A DNA stretch of 16,784 bases. Origin: a virus. Shown in pieces: positions 9,916 through 15,714 of this stretch. The stretch lies in UHGV virus genome UHGV-0338128. One strand, given 5' to 3'. The notes under the pieces were generated by a model. That model was given only the letters and a program-made list of their open reading frames with translations. It ran no database searches and had not been told where the DNA came from. A program made the translations under genes and the position numbers. The stretch's first letter is position 1, and each line of letters begins with the position of its first letter.

Positions 9916-10725
9916 TCAATGAACGGTATCGAGCAACTTTAACAGCTCAGGGAATCGGGATTCGAAGAAATGCGGCTGCGTCTCGCGCGGATTTGCGGGA
10001 CTGATGATGTTCTTGCCGAACATGCAACCTTTCGCTGTCAGCGACCAGAATTTTTTGATGTTGTTAATCGTGGTACGGCTGTATCGTTCACGTTGTTCAA
10101 CGATCCCCAGCTTCGCCATCTGGTGATATGCCTGATTAGCTGTCAGGCGGATACCATACTGCTTCAGCAGTGCACTCAGTGACAGCGTGGGGCGGCTTGA
10201 GCCATCAGGCGCGTCAGCAGGAGCATCAATGGCATAGCGCGGTGCCAGATTCGGTAAGCCAACAGCCTCCTGGAGTTTCTGACAGGCACCAAGCACTGAA
10301 GAGTTAGACAGGTTTAATTCCCGGCGCATAAAGTCCAGCAGAATCACACCAGCCTGCATCTTGTCAGCAGCCTGTCCGGATAATTTTTCCGGTGCGCTGG
10401 TTACCATGTCGAAAGTACGGATCACCTTCAGATGGAATGACGGGCTGATCCACATTGCATAGGCATACACCAGTTCTTTGCAGACATACGTCCCCTGGTT
10501 ATTTCCGCCATTAATGACGCTAACTGGTTGATTTTGTTCCAGAGGCGGAATTCCACCCTCGGTGAAAAGTTGTTCAATCAATTCACAGGTTTGCTTATTG
10601 GAGAGCCAGTATTTCGGGCGGTTTTTTTGTTCTCCCCCGGCTGCCCTGTGCAGATCGTTCAGGCTGTAACGCCCATAAGCATCACGACGAACTTCAATAC
10701 CATCAATGACCATCAGATTATTCAT
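9916..10725 (-). CDS. KilA-N domain protein
   Basis: N-terminus MNNLMVIDGIEVRRDAYGRYSLNDLHRAAGGEQKNRPKYWLSNKQTCELIEQ matches the KilA-N DNA-binding domain pattern. GGAGA SD upstream of the ATG at 10725. Confidence 0.7.
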   Translation of the reverse strand: MNNLMVIDGIEVRRDAYGRYSLNDLHRAAGGEQKNRPKYWLSNKQTCELIEQLFTEGGIPPLEQNQPVSVINGGNNQGTYVCKELVYAYAMWISPSFHLKVIRTFDMVTSAPEKLSGQAADKMQAGVILLDFMRRELNLSNSSVLGACQKLQEAVGLPNLAPRYAIDAPADAPDGSSRPTLSLSALLKQYGIRLTANQAYHQMAKLGIVEQRERYSRTTINNIKKFWSLTAKGCMFGKNIISPANPRETQPHFFESRFPELLKLLDTVH

Positions 10726-10744: not shown

Positions 10745-11134
10745 TCAGGCGGCTGCACCCGCCGTTTTCTCGTACTTACTGATAGTGATCTCGACCTTCC
10801 CTTCCGGGATAACCGGTCCCCACTCCACCAGCATTCTTTTCACCTGGCTGTCGTCTTCCCACACACCTGCGTGGGTCAGGGCGTCAAACAGCGCCTTGTT
10901 ATAGTTATCCAGATCGCGGATCCTGTTATCCGGAGGAAACAACACGATCTCCACTGAAGCAGGTGCCGACGTTGGTTTCGGCAGACGACGTAACTGCTCA
11001 ACTATTGCTGCGCACGCCGCGCTCTGGAATTTTCGCCCCGCCGCGCTTATCAGGCTCTTACCTGCAAACGCCCCTTTGTTAGGGTGTCGCCAGTAAGTGT
11101 TCACGCTGGGCGGGAAAGGCAGGATAAGCTTCAT
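10745..11134 (-). CDS. rusA: RusA-family Holliday junction resolvase
   Basis: LPFPPSVNTYWRH... and IRDLDNYNKALFDALTHAGVWEDDSQV align with E. coli RusA (LPWPPSNNRYYRH..., [27 protein letters not shown]) as I recall it. ATGA overlap with the upstream gene. Confidence 0.85.
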   Translation of the reverse strand: MKLILPFPPSVNTYWRHPNKGAFAGKSLISAAGRKFQSAACAAIVEQLRRLPKPTSAPASVEIVLFPPDNRIRDLDNYNKALFDALTHAGVWEDDSQVKRMLVEWGPVIPEGKVEITISKYEKTAGAAA

Positions 11135-11457
11135 ACTTTCAGGCCCCTCTCATGTAACCAGTGAGTTGCACGCAGCCTGGCGTTTTCCTCACCGGCAAGC
11201 AGTGCGCGGATAATCCCGGCTGCCTCGCTGTCGTCGTCCTTCACTGTGGTATGAAGCGTGATACCCCGGGCCACGCCACGCTTTATCGTGATGACGCCTT
11301 TTTTCTCCATTGCGCGAAGATGCTCCACCGCTGCATTCACCGAACGGTATCCCAGCATGGCTGCCACCTCCTGATTGGTTGGCGGGAAACCACGTTCTTT
11401 CTGATAAGAAATCAGCATATCCAGCACCTGCTGCTGGCATTGAGTTAACGTCGTCAT
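11131..11457 (-). CDS. LexA N-terminal DNA-binding-domain homolog lacking the S24 peptidase domain (108 aa)
   Basis: From the ATG at 11457: MTTLTQCQQQVLDMLISYQKERGFPPTNQEVAAMLGYRSVNAAVEHLRAMEKKGVITIKRGVARGITL aligns without gaps to E. coli LexA residues 1-69 as I recall them ([68 protein letters not shown]). Only about 39 further residues follow and no Ser/Lys peptidase domain. Start overlaps the upstream stop (TAATG); the ORF track start at 11490 is a GTG. Confidence 0.7.
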   Translation of the reverse strand: MTTLTQCQQQVLDMLISYQKERGFPPTNQEVAAMLGYRSVNAAVEHLRAMEKKGVITIKRGVARGITLHTTVKDDDSEAAGIIRALLAGEENARLRATHWLHERGLKV

Positions 11458-11945
11458 TAACCCCCCACGTAATTCCCTGACAGATACCACTCATCACCCG
11501 ATACAGCGCGCTTGCTGCTTTTCCGTAAACACTGCTCACGACGCGCCAGAAAATTGTTTCGTTCTGGCTGGGAGTGGCTTTCACGGAATGCCGCCATCCA
11601 CACCGTTGCAGCACGACGGTATAAGCCCCTGGACTCTAGTTCTTCAGCCTGGCGGGTCAGGCACAAAATCACACGGGGATCGTTAGTGCCGACATAGAAA
11701 TTGCGCACAGGTCTGGTTTCACGAACTGGTTGTGGTTCCGGCTCCTGTGCTCTCTCAGTCAGGCGCGGGAAATGTCTGCGTGTATCCCCTTCACAACGGT
11801 GAGCCACACGCCCACTCTGACGTAACTTGCTTGCTGACTGCAGAACGCGCTGCCGTGAGTAACCAGCAAAAGCATCCGCAATGTCTCCGGAAGTACACCC
11901 CGGATGGGCTTCAATGAATTTCTGAACTTCATTCAAAAGACTCAT
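11457..11945 (-). CDS. putative PerC/Pch-like transcriptional regulator (162 aa)
   Basis: C-terminal LESRGLYRRAATVWMAAFRESHSQPERNNFLARREQCL resembles the GLWRRAA..W core I recall for PerC-family proteins. The N-terminal 60 aa looks like a winged-helix. Family assignment is from memory and tentative. Confidence 0.45.
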   Translation of the reverse strand: MSLLNEVQKFIEAHPGCTSGDIADAFAGYSRQRVLQSASKLRQSGRVAHRCEGDTRRHFPRLTERAQEPEPQPVRETRPVRNFYVGTNDPRVILCLTRQAEELESRGLYRRAATVWMAAFRESHSQPERNNFLARREQCLRKSSKRAVSGDEWYLSGNYVGG

Positions 11946-11947
11946 GA

Positions 11948-12754
11948 TTACCCCCTGAATCCTGCCGGGATCTGGCTGTAGTCCACGTTGTCGTAACTGG
12001 CTTTGAAGTACGGGTCCTCGCGTCTGGCTGCAGATACCGCAGGAACTTCCCAGGATTCTTCGAAATGACGATCCGGACCAAAGAACGTGACAGCCTGTTT
12101 CACAAATTGTGTGCCGCTGTTACCCATCGCAGATACCCAGCCCGCGTAGCGTTTCACACCTTCCAGCATGGTTTCGGGTTTTACCCCCTCATTCAAACGG
12201 GCTTTCCAGGCTTTGAAGGCTGCAGATTTTGAATTGCCACCAGCACGTTTGGGATATGCCAGCCATGCCTGCTCAAACTCCGGAGAGTATTCCGGTCGGT
12301 TTGAACGAACTCGCACAGACTCATCAGCAGATGCACCAACAGCTATTGGTTCATTGACTGGTTCAAAAGAGTGACTGGTTCTGGGTGAATCTCCTGCACT
12401 ACCCCCTGGTGCAACTCCTGCACTACCTGGTGAATTTGCTGCACCAGATAGTGAATTATTTGCACTACCCCCTAGTGAATCTCCTGCACCATCAAGATGA
12501 AGGAGATAGATATTACTTGAGTTACCTTTTTCACCTTTCCGGGTGACTTTTTTTACCAGCCCGGAATCACAAAGGGCCGCAATATGATTCATCACAGAAC
12601 GTTTGCTAATCTCGCACTGGTCAGCAATATGCTGGTAGCTGGGCCAGCACTCACCCTGATCGCTGGCATTATCAGCCAGCTTGATCAGAACCAGTTTTCG
12701 CAATGGATTACCCACTCGAATTTTCATCGCTTTAACCATCAGCTCCATACTCAT
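11948..12754 (-). CDS. replication initiator (lambda O-like replisome organiser, N-terminal HTH)
   Basis: Start at the ATG at 12754, overlapping the upstream stop (ATGA). N-terminal ...LRKLVLIKLADNASDQGECWPSYQHIADQCEISKRSVMNHIAALCDSGLV is typical of phage replication-initiator HTH domains. A Gly/Ser/Ala-rich linker is encoded by a direct-repeat array, then a C-terminal domain follows. The ORF track extends to 12793. Confidence 0.75.
   Translation of the reverse strand: MSMELMVKAMKIRVGNPLRKLVLIKLADNASDQGECWPSYQHIADQCEISKRSVMNHIAALCDSGLVKKVTRKGEKGNSSNIYLLHLDGAGDSLGGSANNSLSGAANSPGSAGVAPGGSAGDSPRTSHSFEPVNEPIAVGASADESVRVRSNRPEYSPEFEQAWLAYPKRAGGNSKSAAFKAWKARLNEGVKPETMLEGVKRYAGWVSAMGNSGTQFVKQAVTFFGPDRHFEESWEVPAVSAARREDPYFKASYDNVDYSQIPAGFRG
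12385..12493. repeat. iteron-like direct repeats (five units of about 21-24 bp, GTGAATCTCCTGCACTACCCCCT-like) inside the replication gene: candidate ori
   Basis: Units begin near 12385, 12409, 12430, 12451 and 12475; each contains a GTG(A/C)A...TGCAC partial dyad. They map to the interdomain linker of the initiator, as lambda ori iterons do within O, and are flanked by a moderately AT-rich stretch (12494-12530). Confidence 0.55.
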
Positions 12755-12975
12755 GCTGCACCTCCGAGATGCTTCATGTTTTTTCCGGAGCAAAAGGCTA
12801 TAAGCGGCATACTGACGCGGTAATTACGGCCCAGCGGTTCACAAACCACCTTCTGACATTCACGGTCAACCAGGCTAACACGTAGAACATGCCCTGCAGG
12901 CGTGGTGTACCACTGACCCGGACGAGGACAACGGAAAGTCTGATTGGTAAAACGTTTGAAAATATTCCGGATCAT
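12751..12975 (-). CDS. hypothetical small protein (74 aa)
   Basis: ATGA overlaps at both ends (with the Rha stop and the replication-gene start) imply translational coupling within the early operon. Several Cys/His (RCPRPG...RECQKVVCEP). No family recognised. Confidence 0.5.
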   Translation of the reverse strand: MIRNIFKRFTNQTFRCPRPGQWYTTPAGHVLRVSLVDRECQKVVCEPLGRNYRVSMPLIAFCSGKNMKHLGGAA

Positions 12976-14123
12976 TTGCGCCCCCTTACCTCTGAAGGGT
13001 TCAGCGACAAATTTATGAGGCAGGCCAGCGCCGAAGCATCATTAATATAATCATATAAGCTAACAGCCAGCGGAGATTCGGCTTTTGCCAACATAGGATA
13101 AAGCTGCTGCAGCCAGACCTGATGAATTGATGAAATGTAGGAACAGAGAACGCTGGCGTTATGTGCAACGTCGCTCGGTACAGCGGGCTTTGAAAGCTGT
13201 TTCTCCATCTGGTTAAAGGCATTGATATATGCCTCTTTGAACTGGGCAGCACGTTTACCCGTGAAACCCATAGCAAGAAACGCAAAACCGTCGCGTGTGA
13301 TTTGGTAGCAATGAAGTTTGCGACCTGTGCAATCAGTGTAATCACTCACCGAAAAATTGCGGGCAGTGAATGATGCTGAGCATTCAAGCGTGCGGATCTT
13401 TTTCAGTACATCGTCATGACGTTTGGAGAAGAAGTTGGCAACAGCCAGGGATGAAGTAACAACCTGACCATCAACGATGGCAATTTCAGGTTGAGTGAGG
13501 GTTGGGATCGTAGCCATGATGGCAGCCTCTTTGGTGATTTTTAATAACTCACCACCAAGGCTTTCCACGACCTTATTGGTGGTGAGACGTACAGGGGTGG
13601 AAATACCGGTCACCAAAGAACCCGGCCCAACCGAAGTTGGCCCTGCACGCCCCACCATAATTTGGGCGTAATGCTGCTCATGACACAAAAAAACCGCAAG
13701 AGCGCGGTTGTGCGCTTTGGTGAATTCCGGGTTTCCACGCCCGGCCCCCGTTTTATAAGGTGCCTGAACAGTGTAACGTCCCGGAATGGCAGAATCAATG
13801 TGTTGGTGGTCCGTCACACTCAACAAAATCACGCCTGAATTTCCACAAAGGACTAAAGCACTCATGCGGGTAGTCTTTGCGAAGATAGATAACGCGCTGT
13901 GTTTCTGGTTCCCAACGAATAACATGAACATAAAGCCCTCTTCCGTCACGAAACCAGCGGTTAAGTTCCTGCACAACTCGCCCCCCACAGTCAGGTAAAG
14001 TTCTCTGTGGTTACTTACAGCCTGGTGATTTGGTAATCTGCATTCATGCCGTAACAACAGGTGTTCAGAGACGCTGACCACCAGCTGTTGCGACAAACGG
14101 TTATTTGCCGTTAAACTGTTCAT
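12972..14123 (-). CDS. Rha-family phage regulatory protein with about 200-aa N-terminal extension of unknown function
   Basis: C-terminal 181 aa (from MATIPTLTQPEIAIVDGQVVTSSLAVANFFSKRHDDVLKKIRTL...ITRDGFAFLAMGFTGKRAAQFKEAYINAFNQME) match the Rha domain pattern. The frame is open for 202 further codons upstream to an ATG at 14123 that overlaps the CII-like stop (ATGA) and has GGAGA upstream. An internal ATG at 13517 with AAAGAGG SD sits exactly at the Rha domain start. Confidence 0.65.
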   Translation of the reverse strand: MNSLTANNRLSQQLVVSVSEHLLLRHECRLPNHQAVSNHRELYLTVGGELCRNLTAGFVTEEGFMFMLFVGNQKHSALSIFAKTTRMSALVLCGNSGVILLSVTDHQHIDSAIPGRYTVQAPYKTGAGRGNPEFTKAHNRALAVFLCHEQHYAQIMVGRAGPTSVGPGSLVTGISTPVRLTTNKVVESLGGELLKITKEAAIMATIPTLTQPEIAIVDGQVVTSSLAVANFFSKRHDDVLKKIRTLECSASFTARNFSVSDYTDCTGRKLHCYQITRDGFAFLAMGFTGKRAAQFKEAYINAFNQMEKQLSKPAVPSDVAHNASVLCSYISSIHQVWLQQLYPMLAKAESPLAVSLYDYINDASALACLINLSLNPSEVRGRK

Positions 14124-14671
14124 GCGTTAGTTTCTCCACAGACACAAAACGCCACGACGCCCGGAGCTGCACACTCGCGGGCGTCACTCTTTTCTGGAGC
14201 GCAGAAAATTTTGTAGACCAGTGCCGCATGCTCCTGGAGCTTCGAAATCGACAGATACAACTCATCATTAATTGCTGTCTGCTCGTGTGGCTCCACTACC
14301 CCATCTTCGATTGCCGAACGAATCTGCTTTGAGTAACTCCCGATTTGTTCGATGACTTCCAGCAGGCGCTGGTTTATATCGGCGTTCTCTACTTCCTCAA
14401 TTTCAGGAAGCGATACAAACACCCCACCAGCAGACTGTGCGACAGCATCCGCAATGTAGTGAGTGCCAGCAGCGCGCTGTAAAATCATTGCCCATCCCAG
14501 CGGGAAAATCTGATCGCCATCTGCACGAAGGCGGTTGAATAAAGCGTTCTCTGTTACATCCAGCCACTCAGCAGCTTCAGCGTAACCCCCCGGCAACGCC
14601 GCGATAGTTTTTCTGACAGCTTTCACGTACCACTCAGGCTGTTTTTCCACTTTCCAGTGATGCTTACCCAC
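14120..14671 (-). CDS. putative CII-type early regulatory protein (phage 186 CII / CP76-like), 183 aa
   Basis: Occupies the cII position directly after cro. GTG start at 14671 with AGGAG 7 nt upstream. The central segment (ALFNRLRADGDQIFPLGWAMILQRAAGTHYIADAVAQ) loosely resembles phage 186 CII as I recall it. Tentative. Confidence 0.4.
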   Translation of the reverse strand: MGKHHWKVEKQPEWYVKAVRKTIAALPGGYAEAAEWLDVTENALFNRLRADGDQIFPLGWAMILQRAAGTHYIADAVAQSAGGVFVSLPEIEEVENADINQRLLEVIEQIGSYSKQIRSAIEDGVVEPHEQTAINDELYLSISKLQEHAALVYKIFCAPEKSDARECAAPGVVAFCVCGETNA

Positions 14672-14924
14672 GGCTTATCTCCTGTTCCTGTGGTTTAAAC
14701 CCATTCTGGTTTTGGCTAGATTGAAAACGTGCCGGATAAAGAATCTGCATTTCGCTGATTTCACCCTTAAAAAAATTGGCCAGACGTTCTGCAAGCTCGA
14801 TAGATGGAATTTGTTCCAGTCTTTCAATACGACTCAGCGTCGCTGGATTGACCTGAACGCCAGCAGCAACATGCTGCAAAGTAAATCCGTGCGCTTTACG
14901 CACATTCCGTAATGGTGATTGCAT
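14664..14924 (-). CDS. cro: Cro-like HTH (XRE-family) repressor
   Basis: 86-aa ORF divergent from the CI-like gene, with GGAGG SD and an HTH (GFTLQHVAAGVQVNPATLSRIERLEQIPSIELAERLANFF). Confidence 0.8.
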   Translation of the reverse strand: MQSPLRNVRKAHGFTLQHVAAGVQVNPATLSRIERLEQIPSIELAERLANFFKGEISEMQILYPARFQSSQNQNGFKPQEQEISRG

Positions 14925-15021: not shown

Positions 15022-15714
15022 ATGAACATAGGAAATCGAGTCAGACAACTTCGCCAAGCGAAGAACATGAAAATCGCCGATCTCGCTGAAGCAATAGGAG
15101 TGGATGCGGCAAATATCTCGCGCCTGGAAACAGGTAAGCAGAAACAATTCACTGAACAAGCCCTGAGTAATATTGCCAGGAGCTTAGGTGTTGATATTGC
15201 TGATCTCTTTACCTCAGACTTCAAAAGTAATACTGTATGTAAAAACAGTATTAGTGAGGATGTTGCGCAGGTGAAGGATGTATTCCGTATTGAAATGCTG
15301 GATATCAGTGCCAGTGCGGGAAATGGCCTTATCCAGGGCGGTGATGTCATTGATGTGATTCATGCCATTGAATACAGAACTGATAATGCTGTATCGATGT
15401 TTGGCGGACGGCCAGCAAATCACATTAAAGTAATCAACGTTCGTGGGGACAGTATGTGTCCAACCATTGAGCCAGGAGATCTCATCTTCGTTGATGTCAG
15501 TATCAATCAGTTTGATGGAGATGGTATCTATGTATTTGGTTTTGATGATAAAATTTATGTCAAACGACTGCAAATGATACCTGACAAACTACTGGTGATT
15601 TCTGATAACCAGATTTACCGTGAATGGGGAATTACCAGCGAAAATGAACACCGGTTTATGGTCTTTGGAAAGGTCTTAATCAGCCAGTCACAAACCCTTA
15701 AGCGACACAATTAA
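15022..15714 (+). CDS. cI: CI-like prophage repressor (N-terminal XRE HTH, C-terminal S24 LexA-like autopeptidase)
   Basis: HTH (MKIADLAEAIGVDAANISRLETGKQ), an Ala-Gly candidate cleavage site (SASAGNG), and a peptidase signature (VRGDSMCPTIEPGDLIFVD ... VKRL). Confidence 0.9.
   Translation: MNIGNRVRQLRQAKNMKIADLAEAIGVDAANISRLETGKQKQFTEQALSNIARSLGVDIADLFTSDFKSNTVCKNSISEDVAQVKDVFRIEMLDISASAGNGLIQGGDVIDVIHAIEYRTDNAVSMFGGRPANHIKVINVRGDSMCPTIEPGDLIFVDVSINQFDGDGIYVFGFDDKIYVKRLQMIPDKLLVISDNQIYREWGITSENEHRFMVFGKVLISQSQTLKRHN
15231..15250. promoter_or_regulatory. near-consensus LexA (SOS) box TACTGTATGTAAAAACAGTA inside the cI coding sequence
   Basis: Perfect TACTG-N10-CAGTA with an AT-rich spacer; falls in the linker between the HTH and peptidase domains of the CI-like protein (codons for SNTVCKNSI). 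Confidence 0.45.

Follow-up and report, generated by a model that had tools for sequence, protein, structure and literature searches.

In phage lambda, whose origin (ori) lies within the initiator gene O, four annotated iterons occupy O codons ~117-145, following the Phage_rep_O domain and preceding an A/T tract. Iteron plasmids of the RK2/F type use winged-helix initiators on direct iterons, and the 13-mers adjoining these iterons are needed for their sequence, not for A+T content alone, and are bound by Rep as single strands (PMC4980987). In the pHW126 family (pIGRK), the origin comprises a conserved region of ~20 bp and four 20-bp iterons, both of which are bound by a dimer of the winged-helix Rep (PMC6854812). 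Here we analysed a 16,784-nucleotide stretch of UHGV virus genome UHGV-0338128 (hereafter the window), which belongs to a lambdoid Escherichia coli prophage and contains, on its minus strand, a replication initiator gene with five tandem repeats in its coding sequence. We propose that these repeats are iterons for dimers of the encoded initiator and that, together with a flanking unwinding region, they make up the replication origin of the prophage in the lambda layout. Comparative sequence analysis gives this proposal, in which both initiator binding and origin firing are inferred, a probability of about 0.75. A first-pass annotation of the window had likewise named the array as a probable lambda-type origin inside the gene, which is supported below by conservation of the repeats as DNA, by their covariation with a recognition helix, and by the loader and helicase genes that follow the initiator in relatives.

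The repeat array and the encoded initiator

Tandem Repeats Finder reported an array at 12385-12489 (period 24, 4.6 copies, 64% matches, 13% indels, score 77). The full repeat extent was 12382-12492, with coding-strand units of 21, 24, 21, 21 and 24 nt, every one a multiple of three. Each unit holds an exact 15-bp core, GTGCA-N5-T[G/T]CAC, at core spacings of 24, 21, 21 and 24 bp. No further exact copy of the core was found within the window, and one-mismatch cores outside the array were at chance level (five places, representing six strand matches, compared to 3.0 expected over the whole window). The arms of the dyad are perfect in unit 4 (GTGCA/TGCAC) and off by one base in the remaining units, and the symmetry reaches ~19 bp as the near-palindrome T-R-GTGCA-N5-TKCAC-Y-A. 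The five tandem 21-24-bp repeats with partial internal dyads described in the first-pass annotation were therefore borne out by both the repeat finder and the core matching. Of the interval it proposed (12385-12530), the repeats stood, while the remainder (12493-12530) proved to be the AT-rich end of the part coding for the winged helix. A GTG-initiated open reading frame (ORF) of 53 aa spans the repeats on the opposite strand (12385-12546, plus), and is most likely a by-product of repeat composition and not a gene.

The array starts at codon 89, right after the winged helix, and places five phased dyad repeats inside the gene. Its units encode the peptides GAGDSLG, GSANNSLS, GAANSPG, SAGVAPG and GSAGDSPR. 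In the AlphaFold2 model, the winged helix has an H-H-H-H-beta-beta topology (predicted local distance difference test score, pLDDT, of 77-89), residues 91-153 are disordered (pLDDT <50), and the C-terminal helical domain is modelled with moderate confidence over residues 155-225. Because a confident winged helix (residues 1-88) is followed by a disordered stretch that includes the repeat peptide, we interpret the repeats as linker-coding DNA, in agreement with the Gly/Ser/Ala/Asn/Pro linker anticipated from sequence composition.

The initiator matched Pfam HTH_36 (PF13730) over residues 18-68, above the gathering threshold (2.8e-11, 43.5 bits, cut-off 25), and the isolated N-terminal domain scored 46.6 bits. 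It also matched PHROG 270, 'replication initiation protein' (1e-88), with 'DnaD-like helicase loader' and 'primosomal protein' among its other PHROG labels. The protein could not be placed in the DnaD family, as DnaD_N scored 23.2-26.7 bits (cut-off 27) and the C-terminal domain was without a family match. Foldseek with the initiator model returned generic winged helices only, including a structural match to DnaD-N, and searches of Pfam, NCBIfam and PDB gave no relative of the C-terminal domain, the presumed helicase-recruiting domain. Homology to lambda O was considered and rejected: the best BLASTP E-value was 0.019, over 22 residues in non-equivalent regions, and the window protein belongs to HTH_36, whereas lambda O matches Pfam Phage_rep_O at 5.7e-36. 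By sequence, the initiator is best regarded as an analogue of lambda O in position and layout, not as a homologue. The earlier designation of the gene as 'O-like' is accordingly apt for position and layout, and not for family.

Conservation of the repeats and pairing with the recognition helix

We assessed whether the repeats are constrained as DNA or as peptide, a question on which close relatives are uninformative and which distant relatives decide. Among close relatives, 78 of 80 IMG/VR loci have the five-copy array. The ST64B sequence is 99% identical to the window across the N-terminal module and diverges only after gene nt 408, which points to recent mosaic ancestry. Near-identity of the ST64B repeats was dropped as evidence for constraint because the whole N-terminal module is equally near-identical. 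Copy number varies among these relatives: in cdtI (locus L001, 1998-2168), an exact 66-bp duplication adds three iterons to give eight in total, and, judging from protein lengths of 242-302 aa, arrays in E. coli prophages range from 1 to ~9 units. Such variability, together with the predicted disorder of the repeat peptide, would be compatible with a low-complexity Gly/Ser/Ala/Pro linker that expanded through slippage and has no function at the DNA level.

The distant relatives make this slippage explanation very improbable. Protein motifs from outside the linker were used to seed a scan that took a single genome from each species. It yielded 80 loci, of which 44 carried the same core three to seven times at the same gene offset (199 sites overall). 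The core was absent elsewhere in the ~4.4-kb sequence of each of these 44 loci (~2-kb flanks), whose hosts were Kosakonia, Pluralibacter, Enterobacter, Lelliottia, many Pseudomonas, Aeromonas, Marinomonas, Wohlfahrtiimonas and Zymobacter. Neighbouring sites were spaced 21-24 bp apart in 145 of 155 pairs. Most sites (168 of 199) are read in the main frame, xGT-GCA-…, giving peptides like SAGDS. The other 31 lie one base out of register (GTG-CAx-…, encoding VQEIH or VQQIH), with compensating spacings of 23 and 22 nt. Moreover, the arms are reversed (GTGAA…TGCAC, peptide SESPAP) at 34 of the 199 sites. The core is thus kept while frame and orientation differ, and therefore the peptide changes while the DNA site stays. 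This is the opposite of what would be expected had the repeat DNA been unconserved and the protein linker free to vary.

Codon use in the linker was also extreme, and opposite to host bias, which a slippage-expanded linker would not explain. In 20 loci from hosts with >55% G+C, we compared the linker with the rest of the same genes. Alanine was encoded by GCA in 91% of linker codons (12% in the rest), glycine by GGC in 0% (44% in the rest), and serine by AGT or TCA in 78% (15% in the rest). Collectively, the comparison argues that the repeats are under selection at the DNA level, not the peptide level. In two loci, from Pseudomonas bharatica (L120) and Erwinia rhapontici (L126), there was one G fewer between iterons (taggggta compared to tagggggta), resulting in a frameshift after which the element downstream of the array reads PEPVTLLNQ* and the C-terminal domain is a separate ORF. 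The G-runs between iterons may be frameshift-prone, and these two cases may be pseudogenes or sequencing errors.

Relatives with another recognition helix were found to have other repeats at the same gene position. Six pairings were distinguished: helix IS[KR]RSV[MI]xHI with repeat GTG[CA]A-N5-T[GT]CAC; ISKRSVMRHIDDLC with GTGAC-N5-GTCAC; IDRSTVRKHIKQLE with TGTAGGCCCAGAAAGCACA; I[GAS]RSTVKxHIRELE with GGGGC-N7-NNCCC; CSKSAVRxHIxAL with TGCC-N7-NGCA; and MSRKTAIGHIDVLC with GTGTAAAAATTACAC. Across 128 unique helix-plus-linker combinations, the resulting table was block-diagonal with no off-diagonal entry (class counts of 62/62, 23/23, 17/17, 13/19, 4/4 and 1/1), albeit with motif classes that were defined by eye on the same data and loci that are phylogenetically non-independent. 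Other repeat classes also occur occasionally in alternative frames (e.g. PGDTESP and VVTQSH for GTGACACAGAGTCAC). An association of this kind is what would be seen if the encoded protein recognised the repeats in its own gene, and a passive linker would not track the recognition helix.

Covariation of helix and repeat speaks to cognate binding, not to origin firing, and plasmid iterons commonly double as autoregulatory or control sites (PMC4980987, PMC6854812). The repeats could accordingly bind the initiator and serve autoregulation or copy control only, as an operator-like roadblock or as titration sites within the gene, with the origin elsewhere. We consider this quite unlikely, given that no second motif array was found in the window or in the ~2-kb flanks of the 44 related loci, that in every case the array adjoins, at a constant distance, a DNA element conserved throughout the specificity groups (described below), and that the layout of the array copies that of lambda ori.

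The 38-bp junction element and the origin model

On the coding strand, the last iteron is followed immediately on its 3' side by a 38-bp junction element, CCAGAACCAGTCACTCTTTTGAACCAGTCAATGAACCA, which reads CC AGA ACC AGT CAC TCT TTT GAA CCA GTC AAT GAA CCA and encodes RTSHSFEPVNEP. Its codon use was compared across 64 dereplicated loci that cover all iteron classes and hosts of 38-64% G+C. The codons AGA, ACC, AGT, CAC, TCT and GAA were the same in 100% of the loci. The mean top-codon fraction was 0.94, compared to 0.61 in a block conserved to the same degree as protein (NPLRKL…GECWPSYQHIADQCE), in which two to six codons are used per residue, Trp excepted. Information content is ~2 bits per position over ~38 bp and falls to approximately zero right after the element, which is kept whatever the type of repeat or C-terminal domain. 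It is also where G+C reaches its local minimum (±400 bp), in high-GC and low-GC hosts alike.

An exact 27-nt core of the element was present in at least 120 viral contigs, and lay inside an HTH_36-type gene wherever upstream sequence was available. Deposited phages carrying this core include those of Vibrio, Klebsiella, Salmonella, Pseudomonas, Stenotrophomonas, Pectobacterium (ZF40) and Aggregatibacter (S1249); no origin is annotated at the core in these deposited phages. Within the window, the element contains GAACCAGTCA twice plus a partial GAACCA. The window is without one 12-bp unit (GAACCAGTCAAA, encoding EPVK) that is found in most relatives, such as cdtI, SfV and ST64B (loci L001, L002 and L003). 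Among the 80 close relatives, GAACCAGTCA occurs twice in 13 loci, three times in 64 and four times in 3.

Conservation of the element could instead reflect a role outside the origin machinery, either as a patch of homology through which the specificity module (N-terminal domain and iterons) is exchanged between different C-terminal and helicase-loader modules, or at the RNA level. The C-terminal halves encoded downstream of it form ~27 crude clusters in relatives, which go with different partner genes, and conservation ends abruptly where the element ends. Identity between the window and ST64B drops from 97-99% to 79% at exactly that point, suggesting a recombination breakpoint between specificity and C-terminal modules. 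However, exchangeability alone is a weak force to hold 38 bp near-invariant across hosts of 38-64% G+C, and would account for neither the direct joining of the element to the last iteron in every case nor its own direct repeats, which vary in number, and its G+C minimum. In addition, no Rfam family matched the junction element, and none matched the repeats. A role outside the origin is thus unlikely, although a recombination junction between modules would also be compatible with the data. We interpret the junction element as a conserved origin core, acting as the site of unwinding or helicase loading or as the site of a conserved factor.

More broadly, and tentatively enough that we rate it just short of even odds, HTH_36 initiators may constitute a large uncharacterised superfamily in gammaproteobacterial phages. 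Their in-gene origin would consist of two overprinted layers: iterons that coevolve with the recognition helix, in either of two frames and either orientation, and a universal 38-bp core, CCAGAACCAGTCACTCTTYTGAACCAGTCANNGAACC, which would be the actual site of unwinding or helicase loading, or the target of a conserved host factor, and would also mark where the helicase-recruiting C-terminal modules are swapped. The core CCAGAACCAGTCACTCTTYTGAACCAGTCANNGAACC is found almost base for base in phages of Escherichia, Salmonella, Klebsiella, Pseudomonas, Vibrio, Pectobacterium, Stenotrophomonas and Aggregatibacter.

On the other side of the array, next to repeat 1, the region 12480-12559 has 32-40% G+C, and the lowest duplex stability of any 30-mer in the gene falls at 12503-12532 (nearest-neighbour energy of -32.5 compared to a mean of -40.8 kcal/mol). 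The AT-rich stretch noted in the first-pass annotation therefore exists. It is not conserved as DNA in relatives, however, and the family-wide G+C dip there is shallow; the conserved flank is the junction element on the opposite side. Beside the AT-rich stretch, a terminator-like hairpin and T-run (TCACCTTTCCGGGTGA CTTTTTTTAC) lies antisense to the initiator gene (12531-12546, plus), and the one antisense terminator-like site is within chance (1.4 expected).

Under the proposed origin model, early rightward-type transcription from the immunity region would lead to synthesis of the initiator, dimers of which would fill the five 19-bp dyads, set 21-24 bp or approximately two helical turns apart. 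The nucleoprotein complex so formed would destabilise an adjacent segment, and the C-terminal domain would bring in host DnaB, probably with DnaC, because the phage is without its own loader gene. As the site of unwinding or loading, we favour 12347-12384 because every specificity group conserves it at the DNA level, with the AT-rich 12490-12540 as the alternative; both the place of unwinding and the recruitment of helicase are inferred.

The genes that follow the initiator bear on this model. In relatives, the next gene downstream encodes a lambda-P homologue (PF06992), a DnaC/IstB-like ATPase (PF01695) or DnaB (PF03796), and this order of initiator then loader or helicase is the classical one. 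For the C-terminal type found in the window, a DnaC/IstB-like gene comes next in Kosakonia and Pseudomonas relatives, and yfdN/PerC comes next in the window, SfV and ST64B. Phages of this group, with yfdN/PerC in place of a loader, therefore seem to depend on the loader of the host. SfV, ST64B and mEp460, all deposited as phage genomes, share the loader-less arrangement.

Several observations weigh against the origin proposal, besides the by-eye definition and non-independence of the helix-repeat classes. The prophage has no helicase or loader gene between cI and Q, and a replication-defective prophage is possible, judged from the window alone. The exact copy number of the repeats is not strictly constrained, because close relatives span 1 to ~9 units. 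In the window, the junction element has 47% G+C and is not the least stable segment, which is on the AT-rich side. No promoter-like site accompanies the array, and matches to DnaA boxes in the window (38 compared to 32.8 expected) included no exact one near the repeats. Lambda ori is likewise without DnaA boxes. The searchable literature contained no experiment on this protein family and, including papers on Eru types, SfIV and Pf-5 mobile elements, described no such origin, with Weigel & Seitz 2006 and the SfV genome paper outside its coverage.

Prophage context and comparison with known origins

The features of the locus are listed in Table 1. All listed genes are on the minus strand except for the divergent cI. 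The initiator starts with an ATG at 12754 that overlaps the stop codon of the preceding ORF within the sequence ATGA, and GGAGG lies 6 nt before this ATG. Past the initiator (minus strand), a PerC-family activator (yfdN-like, 162 aa) and a 108-aa protein made up solely of a LexA DNA-binding domain occupy 11131-11945, and are followed by RusA, KilA-N, DUF968 and Q, with lysis genes, terminase, portal and protease beyond.

Table 1. Positions of the initiator gene, its domains, the putative origin elements and neighbouring genes in the window.
Feature	Position	Strand	Basis or remark
cI repressor	15022-15714	plus	
cro-like gene	14664-14924	minus	
CII/CP76-like gene	14120-14671	minus	
Ash/Rha anti-repressor-type gene	within 12972-14123	minus	
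74-aa ORF	12751-12975	minus	directly upstream of initiator gene
Replication initiator gene, 268 aa	11948-12754	minus	ORF and sequence, HTH_36, PHROG 270, synteny in relatives
N-terminal winged-helix DNA-binding domain, residues 1-88	12491-12754	minus	AlphaFold2, HTH_36
Putative recognition helix ISKRSVMNHIAALC, residues 49-62	12569-12610	minus	helix 51-64 in model
AT-rich stretch, candidate unwinding region	12490-12540		flanks repeat 1; G+C, duplex stability
Iteron 1 core GTGCAGGAGATTCAC	12475-12489	minus	
Iteron 2 core GTGCAAATAATTCAC	12451-12465	minus	
Iteron 3 core GTGCAGCAAATTCAC	12430-12444	minus	
Iteron 4 core GTGCAGGAGTTGCAC	12409-12423	minus	perfect arms
Iteron 5 core GTGCAGGAGATTCAC	12385-12399	minus	abuts 38-bp junction element
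Junction element ('J-block')	12347-12384	minus	directly 3' of last iteron on coding strand
C-terminal helical domain, residues 155-268	11951-12292	minus	AlphaFold2 model

The tested segment was 100% identical to E. coli strain A3 (NZ_CP028771), and the initiator gene was nearly full-length in ~880 of 5,426 complete E. coli genomes. Homologues of the initiator numbered 5,511. The closest phage relatives (96-99% DNA identity) were SfV orf39, mEp460, cdtI, 2H10 and several Stx2 phages. Identity over the initiator gene was 87% for ST64B sb42, and the initiator region of Stx2a_WGPS2 was 97.6% identical. Stx2a_WGPS2 is the reference phage for Eru6, a type with Rha-family and helix-turn-helix (HTH)-protein genes upstream of cI (PMC8951638). 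The Eru papers classify gene content only, and a search of their text found no iterons and no passage locating an origin. On plasmids, this initiator type was limited to 38 records, many of them phage-sized (~40 kb) and 35 non-mobilisable; with so few records of this kind, plasmid occurrence was discarded as an uninformative sign of autonomous replication.

Two Rfam matches fell inside the 383-aa mechanical ORF at 12972-14123, namely the C4 antisense RNA (RF01695, 13575-13662, minus, 83.6 bits) and isrK (RF01394, 13687-13763, minus, 64 bits). In the same ORF, the alignment to PHROG 821 began no earlier than residue 61, and the Pfam Ash domain began at residue 117. Because both RNAs lie inside the mechanical ORF, the true Ash/Rha-type gene probably starts downstream of them. 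This region between cII and the initiator resembles the c4-ant module of P1/P7 type or the isrK module of Gifsy-1. Short tandem repeats with low scores (range 35-39) were also detected at 15342-15371 (plus) inside cI (TGATGTCAT, 3.3 copies), 559-576 (TTCAGTGCA, two copies) and 10694-10715 (TCAATACCA, 2.3 copies).

If the proposal is correct, the origin can be read from sequence in a very common class of enterobacterial prophages that includes SfV, ST64B, mEp460, cdtI and Eru6-type Stx2 phages. The family would offer a natural collection, with at least six classes so far, in which recognition helices can be matched to their cognate DNA sites, useful for understanding winged-helix specificity and phage replication incompatibility. 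It would also be a clear example of dual coding, with the sequence of a disordered protein linker set by a signal in the DNA. The 38-bp element would be a candidate origin core shared across phages of several gammaproteobacterial orders, and a handle for origin prediction, minimal replicons, and the recruitment of host helicase by phages without their own loader.

The likeness to lambda ori within O that the first-pass annotation drew is matched by the layout of the annotated lambda iterons after the O N-terminal domain. As in lambda, dyad iterons of ~19 bp lie in the linker-coding part right after the N-terminal DNA-binding domain, at a centre-to-centre spacing of 20-24 bp, with a segment of lower G+C downstream in the direction of transcription. 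The initiator gene also occupies the same place in the early operon, after cro and cII, and a lambda-P homologue is the next gene in some relatives. Unlike lambda, the initiator is an HTH_36 protein, the iterons are unrelated in sequence and number five instead of four, the flank is a sequence-conserved 38-bp element and not a plain A/T tract, and the window phage has no P, DnaC or DnaB gene. Plasmids of the RK2/F type carry their iterons outside the rep gene, usually as direct and not dyad repeats, and DnaA boxes are usual there, whereas none are enriched in the window. The tandem GAACCAGTCA units of the junction element are nevertheless reminiscent of the 13-mers in the unwinding elements of oriC and RK2, and would fit that role. 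The pHW126 family differs in its unrelated Rep, its origin outside the gene, and the rolling-circle features proposed for it, but shares the two-part logic of a conserved element combined with iterons, as seen here in the junction element and the array.

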